A stretch of 64,000 bases of DNA from Patescibacteria group bacterium (GCA_018895015.1 JAHIOX010000015.1:11533-75532); one strand, 5' to 3'. Counted from the stretch's first letter, positions 46,826 through 55,871 are shown. Notes: generated by a model not told the origin, from the letters alone. Numbers and translations: made by a program.

Positions 46826-47083
46826 CTAATTCTTATAAATTTCCTTTCTGTGGCCAACTTTTAAAATAAGTAAAATATTCTTTTTGACATCAAAAAGAAT
46901 TCTGTAATCGCCTATCCGGAAACGATACTCTCCAAATCTTTGGTCCTTAAGTTTTTCGGCAAACGTCAAAGGATTTTCCTGAAGCGAGTAAAATTGAAGT
47001 TTTTTTAAAATTCTTTCGCGAATTTGAGGAGACAATTTTTCAATCTCCCTTGCCGCTTTTCTTTTAAATTCAAAATTAAACAC
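46826..47083 (-). CDS. Type II toxin, RelE/ParE family
   Basis: RelE/ParE fold signature (GEYRFRIGDYRILFDV...ILKVGHRKEIY). 85 aa. Confidence 0.75.
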   Translation of the reverse strand: MFNFEFKRKAAREIEKLSPQIRERILKKLQFYSLQENPLTFAEKLKDQRFGEYRFRIGDYRILFDVKKNILLILKVGHRKEIYKN

Positions 47084-47086
47084 AAA

Positions 47087-47293
47087 TTAAATGCGGTATT
47101 TTTTAAGAATATTTTTTAAGGGAATTGTTCCTTTTTCTTTGCGTCTCTTTTGTATCTCTTTTGCCAGAGCTTCTGAACGGTACATTTCTAAATTTTCCAA
47201 TTCTTCCTCAATTTTTTGCCATTTTTTCAGCGGCAAAATCACAACCCCTTCTTTTCCTCGTATAACGGATTTTGGCAAAACTATTGTATTCAT
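47087..47293 (-). CDS. Type II antitoxin (Phd/YefM- or RelB-like), partner of the downstream RelE/ParE
   Basis: 68 aa. The stop lies 4 nt before the toxin start. Typical antitoxin-then-toxin order. Confidence 0.55.
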   Translation of the reverse strand: MNTIVLPKSVIRGKEGVVILPLKKWQKIEEELENLEMYRSEALAKEIQKRRKEKGTIPLKNILKKYRI

Positions 47294-47395
47294 ATATTGT
47301 TATTCTAAAATTTACTCAAAAAAAGTCAATCCAACAAAATTATCCCCTCTGTTTGATAAATCCTACGCGCCATGTGCGCCACTAAGTGGCTAACA

Positions 47396-47968
47396 CTAAC
47401 TGCTCATTTCCAAAATTTTTTCCAAAGCAACCGGCAATTCAATAACACCATCACTGGCATTAAAATGGCCCTTATTGCGTTCAACTATAATTCCGGCTCC
47501 AAGTTCTTTTTTAAAAATCTCATTATCGTTTAATGGCACCACTGGGTCGTTATCGGAAAAAATAGCGGCAATTTTTTTAGAACTATTTTTAATTTTTTCT
47601 AGATTTATCGGCGTTTCCACCCATGGCCTTGCGATTTTTTCTTCCTCTTCGGACTCCAAATTCGCCAGATTAAACCATCCAGCGACAAACACAATTCCGC
47701 CAACCTTTATGCCATCAAATCTTTCCATATACCTCATTATTGCCTGACGCCCGATGCTATGCCCGACAAAATATGTATTCTCGTCAGACTCGCCGACAAG
47801 GTTCGCGAGAAACGACACCCATTCTTCAATCTTCGGCTCTTCCGTATTCGGCATCGCAGGCGCAAAAACTTCAAAACCTTTTTGCTCCAATTCTTTTTTC
47901 AGCCAAGGAAACCAGTCGTCTTCGGGACTGCCTCCCCACCCATGAATTATAAAAACCCGCTTTTTCAT
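47396..47968 (-). CDS. Alpha/beta serine hydrolase, YdeN/RBBP9-like
   Basis: Nucleophile elbow GHSIG. About 190 aa, FIIHGWGG N-terminal motif. Confidence 0.65.
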   Translation of the reverse strand: MKKRVFIIHGWGGSPEDDWFPWLKKELEQKGFEVFAPAMPNTEEPKIEEWVSFLANLVGESDENTYFVGHSIGRQAIMRYMERFDGIKVGGIVFVAGWFNLANLESEEEEKIARPWVETPINLEKIKNSSKKIAAIFSDNDPVVPLNDNEIFKKELGAGIIVERNKGHFNASDGVIELPVALEKILEMSS

Positions 47969-47970
47969 AA

Positions 47971-48294
47971 TTATTCCGCTTGTTCTAAAAATATTTTTTT
48001 CTCAAATCCGCCGCGCTTTTGCTTTCTTTCTTCTTTCATTTTTAAAATTTCGTCTTTGCTTAAACCGAAAGCTTTTTCTATGGCTTCAATCACCTCAAAG
48101 ATATCGCCGATTTCTTTCATCAATTCATGGCTATTTTCTGCCAAAACAGCTTCTTGGGATTCTTCTAAGAGCTTATTTTTCAGTTCTTTTTTATATTCTT
48201 CATCATCAAGTATACGAGTTATAGGCTTTTCACCATCATTTTCAATAATTTCGGGAATTTTATCTCTCACTAATTTATTATAAATTTTCACCAT
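47971..48294 (-). CDS. MazG-like nucleotide pyrophosphohydrolase domain protein
   Basis: All-alpha MazG/HisE-like pattern (KLVRDKIPEII...EE..E..L). Confidence 0.45.
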   Translation of the reverse strand: MVKIYNKLVRDKIPEIIENDGEKPITRILDDEEYKKELKNKLLEESQEAVLAENSHELMKEIGDIFEVIEAIEKAFGLSKDEILKMKEERKQKRGGFEKKIFLEQAE

Positions 48295-48298
48295 AAAT

Positions 48299-51193
48299 TT
48301 ATTGGATAATTTTAATGATAAATTTTAATTCTTCTATTTTTATTTCTTCGCCATCGTTTTCTGAAAATTCTATTAAGGCAGTATTTGTGCCTTTTTTGAT
48401 TTCACTTTCAAATTTTTTGATTAATTTTTCGCCGTTATAATCTGTCTCAACAACTAAATCTATTTCTTGTCCAGGCATTAACCCTGCCTTTTTGCGCAAA
48501 TCCTGAATATTACGGACTAATTCCCGCATCATGCCTTCGTCTTTAAGTTCAGAAGTAACAATAATATCCAACTTTACGGACGGATCATCTTGAGCCATAG
48601 TAGCATCAAGCATAACCTCCTTTACATTCACTTCGGCTGCGAGAATATCTTTTACTTCACTCCAATACTGCACTTTTTCTCCATTATGCTTAATAGATAA
48701 TCTTTGTAACGGTTGACGTACTTTTATATTATGTTTAGCTCGTTCCATAAGCGCTATAGACGCGAATGACCTGACAAAACTCATAGCAGTTAGTAAATCA
48801 ACATCTACCGAACCAGACTCGGGCCATTCTTCCAAATGTACTGATTCTTTCTCTCTACCCAATTCTTGATAAATTTCTTCTGCCGCAAAAGGCGCGAATG
48901 GCGCGAGCAATTTTGAAAATTCTACCAACACAAAACACGTTGTGCTGACTACGTTATTTTTATCTTCGCCTTCTTCTTTGAATCTGCTTCTCGAACGCCT
49001 GATATACCAAGTGGACAAATCATCAACAAAATCTCCGAGCGGCCGCGCAGCTTTATCTAGTTCGTAGTTTTCCATCGCTTCGGTAATTTCTTGCGTTAAT
49101 TGGTTCAACCGCGCCAAAATCCATTTGTCTAAAATATTTTTAACACTTGGAAATCCAGTTTCCAAGTGTGCGGAAACTGGATTTCCAAGTGTGTACATTT
49201 TATAAAACGCCAAAACATTTTTGAGTCGCATAATTATTTTTTTGTTGACTTCATCCACGCCTTTTTCCGAAAAATTCAAACTCTCGGCGCGCACGGCTGG
49301 CGAAGAAAGAAGGTAAAAACGCAGCGCGTCAGCGCCATATTTTTCAACAATATCCATCGGGTCTGGATAATTTTTAAGGCGCTTTGACATTTTTTGTCCA
49401 TCTTCAGCCAAAATAATTCCGTTGGCAACAACATTTTTATACGCTGGCTTATCAAAAAGAGCCGTGGAAAGAACAAGCAAAGTATAAAACCATCCTCTGG
49501 TCTGGTCCACGCCCTCGGCAATAAACTCCGCCGGAAATGTTTTTTCAAATTCCTCTTTATTTTCAAACGGATAATGCTTTTGAGCGTAAGGCATTGAACC
49601 GGATTCAAACCAGCAATCAAAAACCTCGGGCACGCGCTTCATTTTTTCACCACAATCACATTGAAATTCAATTTTATCAATATGCGGCCTATGCAAATCT
49701 ATTTTGCCAACTTCTTCTGCCGAACCAATGACTTTTATTTCTCCGCATTTTTCGCATCTCCAAACGGGCAAAGGCGCGCCCCAGTAGCGTGAGCGGGAAA
49801 TCGCCCAGTCGCGCGCGCCCTCAAGCCATTTTCCAAAACGGCCGTCGCGCAAATTCGCCGGAATCCAGTTTATTTTTTTGTTGTTTTCCAAAAGCTGGCC
49901 TTTTATTTTTTCAACATTCACGAACCACGAACTCGCCGCGTAATTCAAAAGCGGAGTTTCGCACCGCCAGCAAAAAGGATACGAGTGCGAAATTGATTCC
50001 TGATTAAAAACTTTATCGCCCAAAAATTCAATAATTTTTTCATCGGTCTCTCTTGGATTGCCCTTCGGCTTAACTTGCAAGCCGGCGAAGCCTTCAACTT
50101 CCGGCTTAAACTTCCCGTCCATTCCGACATGCTGAATAAATGGCAATTTTTCTTTTTTACCCAATTCCATATCGTTCTCACCGAACGCCGGCGCGATATG
50201 GACAATTCCCGTTCCATCTTCAGTATTCACAAAATCCGCAGAATAAATTCTCCAACCGTTATTACTATTTTCTAATTTTTTATCTTTAGAATAATAATTA
50301 AATAACGGCTTGTATTTTTTCCCGATCAAGTCTTTTCCTTTTAATTCTTGGATAATTTTATATTCTTTGTCTTTTAGAATGTCATCAATTCTATCTTTTG
50401 CCAAAATAAAATACTCATTATTTTTGAGATTTGATTTTTGAGATTTGATTTTGCAATAAATCACTTTGTGATTTATTGCCAACGCGACATTTCCGGGCAA
50501 TGTCCACGGAGTCGTGGTCCATGCTAAAACATAAGTATCCGGCTCGTCTTCCAATTCAAATTTAACAGTAACGGCAATATCTTTAATCTCTTTATAATTT
50601 TGCGTTACTTCAAAATTTGAAAGAGTGGTTTCGCATCGCGGGCAGACGTGCATTGATTTATGCCCTTCATAAATTAATCCTTTGTCATAAAGCGTCTTAA
50701 AAACCCGCCAGACCGATTCAGTGTAATTTCTGTCCATTGTCTTATAATCATTTTCCATATCCACCCATCTGCCGATACGCGGAATTATTTTTTTCCATTC
50801 GTCAGCGTATTCCAAAACGCTTTCCTCAGCCTTTTTATTAAATTTTTCAATGCCATATTCTTCAATGTCTTTTTTGCTTTTCAAACGCAAATCTTTTTCT
50901 ACGAGATTTTCAATCGGCAAACCATGACAATCCCAACCCCACCTGCGCGGAACATTTTTCCCTCTCATTGTCTGATAACGCGGAATCGCGTCTTTTATTA
51001 TGCTCGCCAAAATGTGGCCGTAGTGAGGAAGGCCTGTGGCAAACGGCGGCCCGTCATAAAAAGAAAAAACAGGCTTGTTTTTGCCCTGCTCAAGCGTCTT
51101 TTCAAAAATTTTATTCTCTTCCCAAAATTTAAGTATTTCTTCCTCTTTTTTAGCGATTTCAGATTTATTTGTTTTATTTTCTTTGTTTTTCAT
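48299..51193 (-). CDS. ileS: Isoleucyl-tRNA synthetase
   Basis: Class I HYGH (PHYGHIL) and KMSKR motifs, CP1 editing domain, C-terminal zinc motif CxxC. Contains the type A palindrome, encoding LGNPVSAHLETGFPS. Confidence 0.9.
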   Translation of the reverse strand: MKNKENKTNKSEIAKKEEEILKFWEENKIFEKTLEQGKNKPVFSFYDGPPFATGLPHYGHILASIIKDAIPRYQTMRGKNVPRRWGWDCHGLPIENLVEKDLRLKSKKDIEEYGIEKFNKKAEESVLEYADEWKKIIPRIGRWVDMENDYKTMDRNYTESVWRVFKTLYDKGLIYEGHKSMHVCPRCETTLSNFEVTQNYKEIKDIAVTVKFELEDEPDTYVLAWTTTPWTLPGNVALAINHKVIYCKIKSQKSNLKNNEYFILAKDRIDDILKDKEYKIIQELKGKDLIGKKYKPLFNYYSKDKKLENSNNGWRIYSADFVNTEDGTGIVHIAPAFGENDMELGKKEKLPFIQHVGMDGKFKPEVEGFAGLQVKPKGNPRETDEKIIEFLGDKVFNQESISHSYPFCWRCETPLLNYAASSWFVNVEKIKGQLLENNKKINWIPANLRDGRFGKWLEGARDWAISRSRYWGAPLPVWRCEKCGEIKVIGSAEEVGKIDLHRPHIDKIEFQCDCGEKMKRVPEVFDCWFESGSMPYAQKHYPFENKEEFEKTFPAEFIAEGVDQTRGWFYTLLVLSTALFDKPAYKNVVANGIILAEDGQKMSKRLKNYPDPMDIVEKYGADALRFYLLSSPAVRAESLNFSEKGVDEVNKKIIMRLKNVLAFYKMYTLGNPVSAHLETGFPSVKNILDKWILARLNQLTQEITEAMENYELDKAARPLGDFVDDLSTWYIRRSRSRFKEEGEDKNNVVSTTCFVLVEFSKLLAPFAPFAAEEIYQELGREKESVHLEEWPESGSVDVDLLTAMSFVRSFASIALMERAKHNIKVRQPLQRLSIKHNGEKVQYWSEVKDILAAEVNVKEVMLDATMAQDDPSVKLDIIVTSELKDEGMMRELVRNIQDLRKKAGLMPGQEIDLVVETDYNGEKLIKKFESEIKKGTNTALIEFSENDGEEIKIEELKFIIKIIQ
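49143..49192. repeat. In-frame intragenic palindromic element, type A (long form)
   Basis: acacttggaaatccagtttcc aagtgtgc ggaaactggatttccaagtgt. Perfect 21-bp arms. Confidence 0.8.
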
Positions 51194-51285
51194 TGTTTAA
51201 TAAAACCCCTCCTTGCCTCCCCTTGTCAGGGGAGGAATTTATTTTGCTCCCTCCCTGACAAGGGAGGGTCGGGGTGGGTTTAATA
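51186..51285. repeat. 100-bp direct repeat, copy 1: structured leader overlapping the ileS start codon
   Basis: tttttcattgtttaataaaacccctccttgcctccccttgtcaggggaggaatttattttgctccctccctgacaagggagggtcggggtgggtttaata. Two internal 7-bp hairpins plus an outer aaacccc/ggggttt pairing. Confidence 0.85.
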
Positions 51286-51388
51286 CGATCACTATAAATA
51301 AAAGTTTAATAGATTCCGCACTTAAATACAATAAAGAAAAAGAAAAAATCCCACAAGGGATTCTTTTTTGTAAACAGCTATTTATAAA

Positions 51389-51847
51389 TTATTTTTTGGC
51401 TTTTATTTCTTCGTATTTCTCAGCGACAGCTTGCTTTATCTCCTGCAGATGTTGCAGTCGAACGCCATAACTGCATTTATCGCAAGTAACCGTACTCCTG
51501 CTATCCGAATGGCAAAAGCAACTGATTTCCCCACCAAATACTTCTTGGATAAAAGTCACGCATCTTTGAAAGTTCTGCGGATCATTCTGCAATAATTTAA
51601 ACGCTTCTTCAATCGCTTGTTTTTCCAACCCGAATTTAACCTCCAAAAACATCGACTGCAATCTGCGCTCATACGAAGGCAAGCCCTGCTCTCTTTTATA
51701 TGACCCCTCTAAGCCTTCATCAAAACTCCGCGAGCTCGAAACAATCTTGCTATGCAAAGTCCCACTATTTACCATTTCCGCCAGCACGCCAAGGTTTGCC
51801 AAACAAAACCAATACTTTCTTTCTTTCAACCATTCTCTCGCGTCCAT
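51389..51847 (-). CDS. Hypothetical protein with C-terminal Cys cluster
   Basis: CFCHSD...CDKC cluster. Lies inside the segment bracketed by the 100-bp direct repeats. Confidence 0.4.
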   Translation of the reverse strand: MDAREWLKERKYWFCLANLGVLAEMVNSGTLHSKIVSSSRSFDEGLEGSYKREQGLPSYERRLQSMFLEVKFGLEKQAIEEAFKLLQNDPQNFQRCVTFIQEVFGGEISCFCHSDSRSTVTCDKCSYGVRLQHLQEIKQAVAEKYEEIKAKK

Positions 51848-51919
51848 ATTCCGCCTCCTGTTCGCATTTTTTCTATCCGCATACTATCACACTACACTTA
51901 CAAAAATCAAGATAATTTA

Positions 51920-52321
51920 TTAATTTTGCAATACATCATGCTTTTGACGGTACGGTTTTATTTTCTTAATCTTCTCTTTTAAGTCTTGATAAACTTCTTC
52001 TATATTAAACATTACGTCATTATTTGTGTAACGGACTACTTTAATACCATACGCTTTTAATTTTTCAGACCTTAATACGTCATATTCTTGCCGTATTACG
52101 TGAGAATCTCCATCAATTTCAATAGCCAACATCAATTCCGAACAATAAAAATCTACAATAAAATTATCTAATGGCTTTTGACGAATAAATTTATAATTCT
52201 CAAATTGCCTACTTTTTAATACTCTAAACCATATTTTCTTTTCCGCGTGTGTTGGATTTTTTCTATTTTCCCTTGCTACTTCTATGAGTTTTTGATTGTA
52301 TGGAATATAAAGTTTTTTCAT
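51920..52321 (-). CDS. DUF559 (Vsr-like/restriction-endonuclease-fold) domain protein
   Basis: THAEKKIW...YKFIRQ...DFYC...LAIEIDGDSH... pattern of the DUF559 endonuclease family. Its start codon is embedded in repeat copy 2. Confidence 0.65.
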   Translation of the reverse strand: MKKLYIPYNQKLIEVARENRKNPTHAEKKIWFRVLKSRQFENYKFIRQKPLDNFIVDFYCSELMLAIEIDGDSHVIRQEYDVLRSEKLKAYGIKVVRYTNNDVMFNIEEVYQDLKEKIKKIKPYRQKHDVLQN

Positions 52322-52412
52322 TGTTTAATAAAACCCCTCCTTGCCTCCCCTTGTCAGGGGAGGAATTTATTTTGCTCCCTCCCTGACAAGGAGGGTCGGG
52401 GTGGGTTTAATA
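52313..52412. repeat. 100-bp direct repeat, copy 2 (99 bp; one G deleted in the second hairpin)
   Basis: Identical to copy 1 except for a 1-nt deletion (gacaaggagggtc versus gacaagggagggtc). Overlaps the DUF559 gene start. Confidence 0.85.
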
Positions 52413-52414
52413 GT

Positions 52415-54160
52415 TTATATCCTTTCCAAAGTTTTAATTCCCAGCAAGCCCAAGCCGGTTTTGAGAGTAGCTGCGATTGCCTGCGCCAAAGCTAAGCGGG
52501 CTTCTCTCTCGCCCTTCGACGCGGCAAGCACTTTTTCTTTTTGGTAAAATAAATTCGCCTCTTGCGCCAACTTGTACAAATACTCCGCCAAATAATGCGG
52601 AAGATAATTTTTTGTAACTAAATCCAAAACATCCGGAAATTCCGAGAGCAGCAAAATAATTCTAGTTTCAATTTCGCTGTTTAAAAATTTCTGGTCAAAC
52701 CTAGCAACCGGTTTCGCTTTGCGCAAAATGCTTTTTAATCGCGCGTAAGCGTACTGTAAATACGGCGCGGAATTGCCTTCAAGGTTCAGCATTTTCTCCC
52801 ACTTAAAAGCGATGTCTGACATCCGATTTTGCGAAAGATCATTATATTTAAGCGCGCCTATGCCGATTGTCTCGGCGATTTTTTGCTTTTCCTTTGATTC
52901 CAAATCCGGCTGTTTTTTCTCTGCCACATTTCTCGCGCGAGACACGGCTTCATCCATCACCTCTTGCAAAGAAATATGCCGGCCGGCCCTGGTGGAAAGT
53001 TTTTTCAAGCCCTCAGACAAAACTAAACCAAATTTGGCATGAAATAATTTTTCTTTTTTTGCCAAGCCCAGTCTTTCCGCGGATTTGAATAACTGCTCAA
53101 AATGAAGCGACTGGCCATTGTCCACCACGTACAGAACCATGTCCGGCTTGAACTTTTTCATCCTGTATTTTATTGCCGCCAGGTCGGTTGTGGAATATAA
53201 ATACGCTTCATCTGATTTGCGAATTATAAACGGCGGCTGATTATTATCCATTGGAATAACTGCGGCGCTATCACTTATTCTCGCGGCGCCATTTTTTAAA
53301 GCGTCGGTTACAATCCCTTCCAGCATAGGTTTGTAAAAACTCTCGCCCAAATAATAATCAAATTTTATATCCAGCCGTTTGTAAACTTTTTTAAATTCGT
53401 CCAGGCTTATTTTGTAAAACCTTTTCCAGATTTTTATATTTTCCTTGTCTCCGCGCTGAAGCTTTTTGGTTTCTTCACGCGCTTTATCTTCCAGCTCTGA
53501 ATTATTTTTCATGCGCGCGGTATAATCCACGTACAAATTCATTAAATCCTCTATTTTTAAGTCTTTTTTATTTTTCAAATCAGACTGCTTAAACGCGGCA
53601 ATTAAAATTCCAAACTGCTTGCCCCAGTCCCCCAAATGATTATCGCCGATTGTTCTCCATCCTCTAAATTTAAAAATATTGCAAAGTGCCTGACCGATTA
53701 TCGTGGAACGCAAATGCGCCACGCTCATTGGCTTGGCGATGTTCGGATGGGAATAATCTATCACGATTGTTTTTCTCTCTTTTATTTTGAACTTACCCCA
53801 TTTATCTTTGTTTTTAAAAATTTCAACAAAATCTTTTTGAATACTTTCTGGCTTCAGCCAGAAATTCAAATAGCCAGCTCCGGCAGTTTCAATTTTGTCC
53901 GTTATTTCTTTAACAGCTTTCAATTTTAACAATTCATCTTTAAATTTTTCCGCGAATTCATTCGGAGGCGTTTTTCGCGCTTCAACTGAAGAAGTCCTAA
54001 TCGTCATTAAATTTGCCGAGTAATGCCCGAACTTTTCTTCGGGTACAATATTAAACATGGCTTTGCCCAAACCAAGCTTTTGCGCGACTTTTTCCATATT
54101 CTTACGCAATATCTCCTTGTTCATTAAACTTAATATATCACAAAAAATCTGCCGCGTCAT
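52415..54160 (-). CDS. argS: Arginyl-tRNA synthetase
   Basis: N-terminal Add-1 domain, class I HIGH-like (SHPNIAKPMSVAHLRS), C-terminal DALR anticodon-binding domain. Confidence 0.9.
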   Translation of the reverse strand: MTRQIFCDILSLMNKEILRKNMEKVAQKLGLGKAMFNIVPEEKFGHYSANLMTIRTSSVEARKTPPNEFAEKFKDELLKLKAVKEITDKIETAGAGYLNFWLKPESIQKDFVEIFKNKDKWGKFKIKERKTIVIDYSHPNIAKPMSVAHLRSTIIGQALCNIFKFRGWRTIGDNHLGDWGKQFGILIAAFKQSDLKNKKDLKIEDLMNLYVDYTARMKNNSELEDKAREETKKLQRGDKENIKIWKRFYKISLDEFKKVYKRLDIKFDYYLGESFYKPMLEGIVTDALKNGAARISDSAAVIPMDNNQPPFIIRKSDEAYLYSTTDLAAIKYRMKKFKPDMVLYVVDNGQSLHFEQLFKSAERLGLAKKEKLFHAKFGLVLSEGLKKLSTRAGRHISLQEVMDEAVSRARNVAEKKQPDLESKEKQKIAETIGIGALKYNDLSQNRMSDIAFKWEKMLNLEGNSAPYLQYAYARLKSILRKAKPVARFDQKFLNSEIETRIILLLSEFPDVLDLVTKNYLPHYLAEYLYKLAQEANLFYQKEKVLAASKGEREARLALAQAIAATLKTGLGLLGIKTLERI

Positions 54161-54480: not shown

Positions 54481-55206
54481 TTATTCTAAAGTTTTAGCGA
54501 AAGACGCTTTATCCAAGAGAACATTTTCGTCAACAACAACTTTGTCTACATTTAGCGCGTTGACCAGTTCAAAATACTGGTCATAAATATGCAACCCGTC
54601 GCTATAAGCGATTAAATCGCCGTCAACTAAATTCAGGCCGTCCAGATGCGCGAGAACATATTCCTTAACCATCTGCAATCCGCCGAGATTTTCCGGTAAG
54701 CCGGCGAATAAATCCCACGAACGGAAAAAAACTGCCATATTTAATTTCCCGTTCACAACCTTGAAATCAATCACGCGCAAACAAGGTGGGTCGGGTAGGA
54801 AAATTGATTCTTTATCCCCGACAGAAATACAAGCCTGATTTGTGTTTCCGTTTGAGCTTTGCAATAAATCAATAACGCGAGGTAATTGCGGTTTTATATA
54901 GCTTCCGTAAGTATACTGTTCGTTTTTTTCCAGCTTATCCTCCATAAGATATCCCAGAAAATATTTTTCTATTTTTTCTTCGCTTGTGGGCGAAGGCCAC
55001 GGAGGCGGCACAATAGGCGCCAGCGGCCTTTTAGCGGGCTCTTTTATTTTCAGAACCACATAAGGCAGCTGTTTCCTTATCTGCCCCACATAACTACCGC
55101 CTTTTACCACAAAATCATAGCCCTGCATTACGCAAAGCCACATTACTTCCCGCCAAACATCATCTATTCTATTGCCTTCCACATAATTCGTCTTAAAATC
55201 TATCAT
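54481..55206 (-). CDS. Divergent thymidylate synthase (ThyA)-family protein: thymidylate synthase or pyrimidine-nucleotide hydroxymethylase-like
   Basis: The C-terminal half aligns with ThyA: catalytic Cys (DPPCLRV aligning with APCHAFF), FFRSWDLFAGLPEN (QRSCDVFLGLPFN), SDGLHIYDQY (GGDTHLYSNH). The N-terminal phosphate-binding motifs (RTGTGT, SRRI) are not conserved. Confidence 0.55.
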   Translation of the reverse strand: MIDFKTNYVEGNRIDDVWREVMWLCVMQGYDFVVKGGSYVGQIRKQLPYVVLKIKEPAKRPLAPIVPPPWPSPTSEEKIEKYFLGYLMEDKLEKNEQYTYGSYIKPQLPRVIDLLQSSNGNTNQACISVGDKESIFLPDPPCLRVIDFKVVNGKLNMAVFFRSWDLFAGLPENLGGLQMVKEYVLAHLDGLNLVDGDLIAYSDGLHIYDQYFELVNALNVDKVVVDENVLLDKASFAKTLE

Positions 55207-55871
55207 TATACTCTCCCTTCATAAAGAAAATTTCTTACTGCGCATACCACATCTTTCTGCACAACATCTTCATCGCGGCTGGCATCAACTGTAATCCAAT
55301 TTCCGTTCTGTCCGGCTAATTTCAAAAACCCGCTTCTCACTCTTTGATGAAACATGATGTCCTTTACATCAAATCTTGTAATTTCGCCAGCGTTTTTCCT
55401 ACGTTCCAGCCCAATCGCCGGATCTACATCTAAATAAATTATTAAATCCGGTTTAAGATTATTTGTCGCGATGTAATTCAGCTCATCAAAAATAGTTTTA
55501 TATCCTTCCCTCTGCGCGCCAATGATTTGGTACGCGAATGTTGAAGGGCTAAATCTGTCGCAAATGACATTTACGCCATTTTTAAGCGCTGGCCGAATAA
55601 CTTTCGCGCAATGTTCCGCGCGCACGGCGCAGAAAAGAAAAAGTTCCGCGAGCGTCGTTATGTGATTGCTTTTATCCATCAAAATCGCGCGAATCTCTTC
55701 GCCGACTTCCGTTCCGCCCGGCTCGCGAGTGAAAATTGAGTTGCCGATATTTTCTTTTTTCAGCTCCTCTATACAGGTGCTTTTTCCGCTTCCTTCGCCG
55801 CCCTCAATCACAATAAACTTTCCTCGTTCCGACATAAATAATCTCCTCTCTTTCTTTAATTTTATTGTCAA
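55206..55871 (-). CDS. tmk: Thymidylate kinase
   Basis: P-loop FIVIEGGEGSGKST, DRF-type motif region, LID region. 1-nt overlap with the downstream ThyA-like gene. Confidence 0.85.
   Translation of the reverse strand: MTIKLKKERRLFMSERGKFIVIEGGEGSGKSTCIEELKKENIGNSIFTREPGGTEVGEEIRAILMDKSNHITTLAELFLFCAVRAEHCAKVIRPALKNGVNVICDRFSPSTFAYQIIGAQREGYKTIFDELNYIATNNLKPDLIIYLDVDPAIGLERRKNAGEITRFDVKDIMFHQRVRSGFLKLAGQNGNWITVDASRDEDVVQKDVVCAVRNFLYEGRV

Follow-up and report, generated by a model that had tools for sequence, protein, structure and literature searches.

The tie between REPIN repeats and RAYT transposases rested on three observations, namely a gene flanked by its cognate repeats, solo copies of those repeats, and matching flavours of the two (PMC3116915, PMC3337134). 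C/G-rich "untagged" palindromic repeats are widespread, fragment metagenome assemblies and cause false gene calls; the origin of untagged palindromic families is an open question in the literature on repetitive extragenic palindromic (REP) sequences (PMC3733652). Among the nucleases, DUF559, Vsr and the homing endonuclease I-Bth0305I have been grouped in one PD-(D/E)XK clade (PMC3424549), and free-standing homing endonucleases of the Vsr-like type exist (PMC2677866). We present here the analysis of a locus at which a palindromic repeat and a DUF559 gene occur together. In a 64,000 nt stretch of DNA from a Patescibacteria (Parcubacteria-like) bacterium (GCA_018895015.1, JAHIOX010000015.1:11533-75532; the whole stretch is called the window below) the genes argS and ileS are separated by a cassette which carries the gene for a predicted DUF559 nuclease and lies between two copies of a 100 bp direct repeat.

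The repeat, and all of the genes at this locus, are read from the minus strand. Copy 1 (51186..51285, 100 nt) stands directly 5' of ileS (48299..51193) and includes the first 8 nt of that gene; copy 2 (52314..52412, 99 nt; the first-pass annotation had begun it at 52313) occupies the gap between argS (52415..54160) and the DUF559 gene, 2 nt from the argS stop codon (52415-52417). Copy 1 reads TATTAAACCCACCCCGACCCTCCCTTGTCAGGGAGGGAGCAAAATAAATTCCTCCCCTGACAAGGGGAGGCAAGGAGGGGTTTTATTAAACAATGAAAAA (51285-51186). Copy 2 consists, in order, of TATT, a palindromic element, the leader ATTAAACA and ATGAAAAA, and its sole difference from copy 1 is a missing G in GGGAGGG of the plus strand, that is, one C of CCCTCCC on the minus strand. 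Both copies terminate in ...GGGGTTT-TATTAAACA-ATGAAAAA, and the final ATGAAAAA doubles as the start of ileS in copy 1 and of the DUF559 gene in copy 2, as the first-pass annotation had recognized; the ileS leader ATTAAACA and start codon lie inside the duplicated unit. Sub-motifs of 20 and 21 nt taken from the repeat are confined to the two copies in the window, even when three mismatches are allowed, and gave no matches in 100 shuffles of the sequence. A generic hairpin detector run over the whole window returned four hairpins, all belonging to copies 1 and 2. Between the copies are found the DUF559 gene (51920..52321, minus strand, 133 amino acids, N-terminus MKKLYIPYN), a Cys-containing open reading frame (ORF) of 152 amino acids (51389..51847, minus strand), and an intrinsic-terminator-like hairpin (AAAGAATCCC TTGT GGGATTTTTT followed by a T-run; 51343..51366, minus strand) which lies at the 3' end of the cassette.

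The junction was compared in three lineages of relatives whose IleRS proteins are 76%, 72% and 63% identical to that of the window. In all of them argS directly abuts ileS, the gaps being, in that order, 10 nt (L208), 1 nt (L209-211) and 4 nt (L212-214), and neither cassette nor element is present; no C-rich hairpin occurs in these empty argS-ileS loci, and the synteny is otherwise kept (secE-nusG-rplK...argS-ileS...recO). Since argS is followed directly by ileS in the relatives, the 1.2 kb block of the window is evidently an insertion between the two genes.

The most closely related empty site, L208 (GCA_020052905.1), also indicates what was duplicated. Its ileS start is annotated about 60 nt too far downstream (1684-1760); an ATG at 1694 gives an N-terminus which aligns with that of the window IleRS. 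The junction so corrected reads argS-TAA-TAATTAAACA-ATGGAAGACAAAAAC, with a product beginning MEDKNNKTNKSEIAKKEEE, the window counterpart being MKNKENKTNKSEIAKKEEE. The 8 nt leader which precedes the window DUF559 gene (attaaaca) agrees at every position with the native ileS leader of L208. The leaders of five close DUF559 relatives (7-34 nt), on the other hand, resemble neither it nor one another, and the leader of the window gene is therefore taken to be that of ileS. On the same ground we rejected a TTAAAC-ATG leader native to the DUF559 gene, which a translated extension of one homologue (P0034) had suggested. The 100 nt unit, comprising TATT, the element, the ileS leader and ATGAAAAA, is on this comparison the duplicated target sequence. 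The incoming DNA has its 5' junction inside the 8 nt ATGAAAAA, which is common to the DUF559 gene (MKK...) and ileS (MKN...), and this suggests microhomology-assisted joining. Directly bordering the element core on both sides is TATT (or TATTAAAC), and the empty site of L208 reads TAATTAAAC. These flanks are compatible with, though not proof of, an earlier MITE-like (miniature inverted-repeat transposable element) insertion of the element into a native TATTAAAC; by eye, two solo copies in Nomurabacteria (L043, L090) have no obvious target-site duplication.

The core of the element is a palindromic double hairpin of about 79 nt (51203..51281 in copy 1) with 57% GC, compared with 41% for the window. 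On the plus strand it reads AAACCCCTCC-TTG-(CCTCCCC TTGTCA GGGGAGG)-13 nt spacer-(CCCTCCC TGACAA GGGAGGG)-TCG-GGGTGGGTTT, where the brackets enclose hairpin 1 (51216..51235; 7 bp stem, loop TTGTCA) and hairpin 2 (51249..51268; 7 bp stem, loop TGACAA). The core of copy 2 occupies 52331..52408, with the corresponding hairpins at 52344-52363 and 52377-52395, the second of which carries the 1 nt deletion. A promoter scan found no sigma-70-like site in the element or next to it on the sense strand. Both hairpins had been described before, together with an outer aaacccc/ggggttt pairing which would close a three-stem structure. The two hairpins are present in both copies; the outer stem is not upheld. 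The predicted minimum-energy fold of the repeat is a single long imperfect hairpin, and partner-shuffling of the outer AAACCC/GGGTTT arms over 65 family members gave a pairing of 7.49 observed against 7.04 shuffled, i.e. no covariation, on which ground we dropped the model of a three-way junction.

When one genome per species was scanned with the query CCYYCCCTTGTCAGGGRRGG, at least 120 loci were obtained, against an estimated 17 or so expected by chance. When the surrounding sequence was compared, the scanned loci had in common the full architecture and not the hairpin alone: (A)AACCCCTCCC-nn-(CCTCCCC TTGTCA GGGGAGG)-spacer of 2-39 nt-(CYCCCCC TGACAA GGGGGRG)-nnn-GAGGGGGTT. The second hairpin, which lay outside the search pattern, has many different stem sequences, each perfectly self-complementary, and the local hairpins are therefore conserved by compensatory change. 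The hosts among the matches listed include Gallionella, Sideroxydans and other Nitrosomonadales (with many contigs per genome), Geobacter, Trichlorobacter, Sphingomonas, Thiotrichales, Zixibacteria, Omnitrophota, and among the Patescibacteria Nomurabacteria, Gracilibacteria, Saccharibacteria and Peribacteria; the family is found in cyanobacteria too. In several Gallionella, Sphingomonas and other genomes copies occur on multiple contigs among these matches, and the window holds two copies in 64 kb. A different repeat, which shares this hairpin exactly, has the form CCTCCCCTTGTCAGGGGAGGtggc-(variable hairpin)-gacGGAGGGGTAGT and is common in metagenome-assembled genomes (MAGs) of gut and rumen Clostridia (Oscillospiraceae; L042, L047, L050, L058, L102, L105, L107, L124, L127); at L050 a DUF559 gene lies 1.2 kb away.

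When the window DUF559 protein was compared with the 120 element loci listed, three matches were obtained, and in two of these the element stands directly upstream of the DUF559 gene (L026, Thiotrichaceae; L071, Imperialibacter); at L026 the reading frame runs on through the element. The protein has 599 homologues at E ≤ 1e-10, many of them encoded on short contigs (1-2 kb); those which are long owe their N- and C-terminal "extensions" to translation of the element: SPDKGRLGGV corresponds to TCC CCT GAC AAG GGG AGG CTG GGA GGG GTT, with PPLSGGE and PLIRGAGRG as variants. At the DNA level, C-rich perfect hairpins were counted in 80 metagenome loci with DUF559 relatives at 38-63% identity. Upstream of the DUF559 gene their density was 3.43/kb and downstream of it 2.79/kb, taken over 300 nt on each side, compared with 0.12/kb within the gene, 0.24/kb in far intergenic-like DNA and 0.07/kb in the remaining 311 kb; in these 300 nt flanks the hairpins are 12-45 times enriched. 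One or more hairpins flanked the gene in 65 of the 80 loci, and in 33 they did so on both sides. The element family is a characteristic flank of a conserved DUF559 subfamily.

The elements differ in flavour between lineages, there being a Geobacter-like, a cyanobacterial (GATCCCCCC...), a Bacteroidota-like (CCCCTCC...GGGGTGGGTT) and a CCCTCTCCC...GGGAGAGGG-YCGGGGTGAGGG type, while their layout is constant across all of these, and solo copies on the same contigs match the flavour of the gene-adjacent ones. Close relatives of the window DUF559 protein (75-80% identity) in other Patescibacteria are located elsewhere in the chromosome, at yqeY|ybeY or in front of secD; these cassettes have different passengers or none, and are in every case flanked by elements. 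The same pattern is present on finished replicons of cultured bacteria, namely Sphingomonas parapaucimobilis, Pseudanabaena sp. ABRG5-3, Picosynechococcus sp. PCC 7002 (pAQ6) and Azospirillum brasilense. Searches of plasmids and phages returned no close DUF559 relatives, the matches being at 35-43% identity only. Proteins of the subfamily (P0001-P0120) from Patescibacteria, Geobacter/Desulfuromonadaceae and other lineages share about 60% identity, which is unusually high across phyla and suggests horizontal spread. Two further features of these loci were recorded. In cyanobacteria tandem arrays of hairpin units stand beside DUF559 genes (L147, 946-1340; L151, L152, L160; L235, 1530-1730), the L147 array consisting of six 66 nt units, each CCCCCCC TTAAGAA GGGGGG plus TAGGGGGGATC. 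The cassette lies directly downstream of a GatB/YqeY-family gene in two Patescibacteria lineages (L215-L221, L226-L229) and in Sphingomonas parapaucimobilis (L233), which could be a recurrent target or a coincidence.

A further property of the family we refer to as the mirror rule: 2-4 nt beyond the purine arm of each terminal hairpin stands the mirror image of that arm, sometimes with A changed to T. The rule is seen in AGGGGGAG-ctg-GAGGGGGT, in AGGGGGGA-ttg-AGGGGGGT and in GGGGAGG-ccg-GGAGGGG. In copy 1 of the window the purine arm GGGGAGG of hairpin 1 is followed on the minus strand by CAA and the mirror GGAGGGG (51206-51212), and the arm GGGAGGG of hairpin 2 on the plus strand by TCG and the mirror G-tract GGGTGGG (51272-51278). 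Counting asymmetric arms only, the 450 hairpins of the genome-scan loci listed gave 146 perfect mirrors and 25 direct repeats, the mean after shuffling of partners being 57 (maximum 71); for the 236 hairpins of the DUF559 loci the values were 87 mirrors, 40 direct repeats and a shuffled mean of 22 (maximum 31). About half of the hairpins are expected to be without a mirror flank, because on each strand only the terminal hairpin should have one. For an intramolecular purine-motif triplex (H-DNA) to form, the sequence must offer a homopurine mirror repeat beside a hairpin, and the element may accordingly be able to adopt hairpin or triplex structures in DNA.

The copies which flank the DUF559 gene are not arranged uniformly. 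Among 75 loci with enough flanking sequence 46 had a significant repeat pair, the clearly direct pairs including those of the window, L187, L222, PCC 7002 and Sphingomonas. Some Bacteroidota-like loci contain half-elements only, as a perfect inverted repeat, e.g. L157, (hairpin + GGGGTGGGT)-gene-(ACCCACCCC + hairpin). In most loci the flanking repeat ends before the start codon, its extension through ATGAAAAA being specific to the window. Since 26 of the 46 pairs are inverted, a mechanism giving only direct repeats cannot be general, and a universal model of long target-site duplication or Campbell integration was rejected. At L226 the sequence ATGAGAAAACTTTACAC downstream of the gene was considered as a duplicate of the DUF559 5' end; this is doubtful, the flanking pair there being inverted.

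The DUF559 protein of the window matches PF04480 with 101 bits (cut-off 20.6) over profile positions 3-108 of 109, and the NCBIfam model PRK09767 (DUF559) with E = 6e-21, under the equivalog cut-off. Residues D57, E68, G71, H74, D81 and R84 are invariant in 120 homologues including this protein, and D70 and D72 are nearly so; the conserved acidic and His residues match the D...ExD..H motif of the catalytic core. A phmmer search of all PDB sequences (E ≤ 0.01) gave 3hrl, an "endonuclease-like protein", as the sole match (E = 2e-14), and did not return 3r3p (I-Bth0305I, EDxHD family). The protein is by these matches a member of the DUF559/Vsr-like PD-(D/E)XK family and a predicted nuclease. The 152-amino acid ORF matches nothing in Pfam, NCBIfam or PADLOC, and a search of 5.8 billion proteins gave no homologue besides itself; it may be non-coding cargo or else a gene specific to the lineage. 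As a conserved partner of DUF559 this Cys-cluster ORF was rejected, since it lacks homologues and other cassettes have different passengers or none. Nor was a defence-system reading retained, PADLOC having given just a weak 24-bit match to a methyl-directed restriction enzyme model.

Our explanation of these data is as follows. A mobile cassette, consisting of the DUF559 gene, the orphan ORF and the terminator, entered a contiguous argS-ileS operon, where two copies of the element now bracket it. The DUF559 nuclease would recognize, and nick or cut, its cognate element, possibly in the hairpin or triplex conformation, and the breaks would be repaired in such a way that the gene is installed beside the element, which is sometimes duplicated in the process. 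In the window, joining at the ATGAAAAA microhomology would have duplicated the element-bearing target. Recombination between flanking copies could subsequently remove the gene and leave a solo element, and the solo elements would be either independent copies or remnants after gene loss. The insertion is apparently tolerated in an essential operon because an intact ileS 5' region, leader and start, was regenerated. A partnership resembling that of RAYT is proposed because the gene is flanked by cognate repeats, many repeats are solo and the flavours match; homing-like behaviour is proposed because the site is empty in relatives, the sites differ among genomes and the nuclease has the Vsr fold. 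To the reading as a whole, which includes an inferred selfish partnership of DUF559 and the element, whether REPIN-RAYT-like or homing-like, we assign a probability of roughly 55%. Its descriptive parts alone, namely that the block is an insertion, that target sequence was duplicated, that the element belongs to the family and is associated with DUF559, and that the mirror rule applies, we hold with high confidence, while the action of the nuclease on the element and the exact recombination pathway are put forward as inferences. The first-pass annotation had offered two readings, insertion of the cassette at the element with duplication, as a selfish event, and a dispersed cis-regulatory or repetitive element. 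The first is supported by the empty sites and by homologues which are flanked by elements elsewhere, and of the second the dispersed repeat stands, in many phyla; each is half right and they are not alternatives.

Several observations weigh against this explanation. Within the matches listed, 117 of the 120 element loci have no DUF559 gene within 8 kb, and 15 of the 80 DUF559 loci have no flanking hairpin by the detector used. The 46 flank pairs comprise 18 direct, 26 inverted and 2 ambiguous ones. The mirror rule could partly reflect common descent within subfamilies, and this particular host, with two copies visible in the 64 kb examined, may lack a dispersed population of elements. As the nearest relative has an IleRS only 76% identical, the element may have come first or together with the cassette. 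The sole functional study found, of the DUF559 protein VsrA of Caulobacter, assigned to it a mismatch-repair-like role tied to a methyltransferase (PMC12907096).

It is possible but unlikely that the element is a generic REP- or MITE-like repeat with no functional link to DUF559, which accumulates wherever intergenic DNA is permissive, also around a poorly expressed accessory gene, the cassette having arrived between copies already present, or having been duplicated with them, by ordinary homologous or illegitimate recombination. Repeats are known substrates for recombination, the 8 nt microhomology at the ATGAAAAA junction would fit host-mediated illegitimate recombination, the flanks are of mixed orientation, and most copies are solo. 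The enrichment beside DUF559 genes is nevertheless 12-14-fold even when measured against the intergenic-like DNA of the same contigs, it repeats in at least four very different flavours and phyla, and the elements are found within tens of nucleotides of the gene ends. Moreover, no transposase, RAYT or other gene family recurs beside the solo elements at the 120 loci listed. Many dispersed copies without DUF559 genes had been named beforehand as grounds for regarding the repeat as something other than an insertion scar; such copies do exist, yet because elements are 12-45 times enriched beside DUF559 genes they do not refute the scar.

We consider it improbable that the hairpins serve a selfish nuclease gene in the control of its expression, as terminators, insulators or translational hairpins which limit a toxic nuclease, that they are not sites of recognition or mobility, and that their likeness across phyla is due to co-transfer with the gene. 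Hairpins do stand 5' of the start codon in 15 of 16 free-standing homing endonuclease genes (PMC2677866), and on the plus strand hairpin 1 of the window together with the following AATTTATTTT scores as an intrinsic terminator; on the sense strand, however, neither hairpin is directly followed by a T-run, and a terminator needs neither the palindromic symmetry nor the mirror rule. The G-tract AAGGAGGGG looks like a Shine-Dalgarno sequence and had been described as one, but the distance from its GGAGG to the ATG is 14 nt, and at other loci a separate, nearer Shine-Dalgarno sequence is present. It is the mirror-image G-tract which trails the terminal hairpin throughout the family, and not primarily a ribosome binding site. 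Elements are furthermore present on both sides of the gene and are plentiful as solo copies far from DUF559.

Very improbable is a cis-regulatory leader RNA of ileS, T-box-like or a translational operator, which the cassette copied, and with it falls the cis-regulatory part of the earlier reading. The position 5' of an aminoacyl-tRNA synthetase gene and the strong predicted folding of the element on either strand (z = -4.75 and -5.22) speak for it, but it is effectively refuted by the empty sites, where ileS follows argS by 1-10 nt and has no such leader. A scan of the region against Rfam 15 at permissive E-values gave at best 18-22 bits (gathering thresholds 37-72; E ≥ 0.28) to unrelated eukaryotic families, and members of the family, symmetric on both strands, stand beside unrelated genes in many phyla. 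An assembly artefact, whether a chimeric join caused by the repeat or a loop of the MAG's assembly graph that was collapsed or duplicated, is scarcely credible: assemblies do break at the repeat and k-mers alone cannot count a de Bruijn graph loop, but the same anatomy occurs in finished isolate genomes, and the repeat and its 1 nt difference are independently seen, because, the window having been assigned to contig JAHIML010000011.1 of the MAG GCA_018896515.1, a second MAG (GCA_018898075.1), colinear over 10.4 kb with a single mismatch, starts inside copy 2 and has the deletion variant there, and a Logan unitig (SRR27456247) covering 52343-51234 begins 30 nt, which is exactly k-1, short of the end of copy 2 and extends 52 nt into copy 1, where it has the non-deleted variant, a further unitig beginning 30 nt before the end of copy 1.

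The neighbourhood of ileS and argS varies among the relatives in other respects. Most related IleRS proteins (1150-1200 amino acids; relatives P0124-P0240) have a PF00300 histidine-phosphatase domain, which is lacking in the window IleRS (964 amino acids) and a few close relatives. A second variable spot lies on the other side of ileS, between it and recO (46826-48294), where the window has five extra genes, among them a 107-amino acid ORF, a Ser_hydrolase, a 68-amino acid ORF with a ParE toxin, and a 141-amino acid ORF; the same interval in L208, L209 and L212 contains no or one small gene. The nucleotide-metabolism genes upstream of argS also vary: the window (54481-55871) specifies a thymidylate kinase and a weakly ThyA-like protein of 241 amino acids, L209 a dUTPase/dCMP-deaminase fusion, and L212 a dCMP deaminase and ThyX.

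A wider proposal, which we advance tentatively and at somewhat less than even odds, is that this DUF559 subfamily comprises the dedicated nucleases of a hitherto unrecognized class of structured DNA repeats found across phyla, in which a hairpin with its mirror-image G-tract could take on hairpin-triplex or H-DNA-like forms, the two together being a REPIN-RAYT-like replicator built on a PD-(D/E)XK nicking enzyme. If true, it would give a function to one of the largest nuclease families of "unknown function" (DUF559, PF04480/COG2852), and would explain the origin of the C/G-rich palindromic repeats behind spurious ORFs of the "PLSGGE / SPDKGRLGGV / GEGWGEG" type, from Patescibacteria to Proteobacteria, Cyanobacteria and Bacteroidota. 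The association predicts a testable pair of enzyme and substrate in tractable organisms, such as Picosynechococcus PCC 7002 (pAQ6), Sphingomonas and Azospirillum. The window locus is a clean and recent example, in which a reduced Patescibacteria genome tolerates a selfish cassette within its argS-ileS operon. In the literature on DUF559, COG2852, Vsr-like nucleases, REPIN/RAYT and the small dispersed repeats of cyanobacteria we found no such association, our coverage being incomplete; the partnership appears to be undescribed, and may have been described elsewhere.

The nuclease-repeat system lies outside the definitions of integron cassettes, classical MITEs, REPIN-RAYT and, by sequence, the EDxHD homing family, though it has features of each. 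In common with integron cassettes and their attC sites it has a promoterless small gene between imperfect palindromes of 60-120 nt with conserved ends and a variable centre, and at some loci the bracketing by direct repeats. It differs in that inverted flank pairs are common, in that the ends are AACCCC...GGGGTT (AAC/GTT outermost) as compared with RYYYAAC...GTTRRRY in attC, and in that no integrase is nearby; no recombinase, transposase-like or integrase Pfam family occurs within 10 kb on either side of the window locus. With MITEs the element shares its size (about 79 nt, under 300 bp), terminal inverted repeats (AAACCC.../...GGGTTT) and lack of coding capacity, but it lacks a parent element encoding a transposase; DUF559, the sole gene which the elements recurrently bound, is not a known transposase. 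Repair Vsr genes are, to our knowledge, not flanked by repeats. They are linked to a cytosine methyltransferase gene, and no methyltransferase gene adjoins the window DUF559; the very-short-patch repair nucleases Vsr and VsrA (PMC12907096) resemble our protein in fold and Pfam clan, Caulobacter VsrA having a DUF559 domain, and in being nicking enzymes at specific short motifs. Insertion sequences which target REP elements, such as ISPpu9 of Pseudomonas putida (PMC8450116), are likewise mobile genes found specifically at palindromic repeats; they bring their own transposase and inverted repeats, whereas in our case a transposase is absent and the flanks consist of the repeats themselves.

The two closest comparisons are with the free-standing Vsr-like homing endonuclease genes (PMC2677866; I-Bth0305I, PDB 3r3p) and with REPIN-RAYT. 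The former are also small genes of the Vsr fold at sites which are uninterrupted in relatives, as argS|ileS is in three lineages; they too are sporadic in distribution, have hairpins upstream of the start codon and bring along their own control elements. The homing genes, by contrast, are inserted in coding sequences (split inteins, group I introns), and their products bind DNA through a separate domain; the DUF559 genes described here are intergenic, encode a single domain of 120-135 amino acids and go with a repeat that is dispersed, not with a unique target. As in REPIN-RAYT, the hairpin occurs as an inverted doublet with a spacer, which can form a longer hairpin (in the window element the inverted arms are 37 nt long, with 73% complementarity and an 11 nt gap); there are many dispersed intergenic solo copies, and one small nuclease-type gene is flanked by cognate repeats of lineage-matched flavour. 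The differences are that the hairpin feet have no GTAG/CGTC tag, in the window element or in 65 family members, the stems being instead rich in C/G homopolymers and accompanied by the mirror-image G-tract; that the gene is of the PD-(D/E)XK type (DUF559/Vsr-like), RAYT being an HUH Y1 transposase (IS200/IS605-like); and that the family spans phyla, between which the DUF559 proteins are about 60% identical, an indication of horizontal spread as opposed to strictly vertical inheritance.

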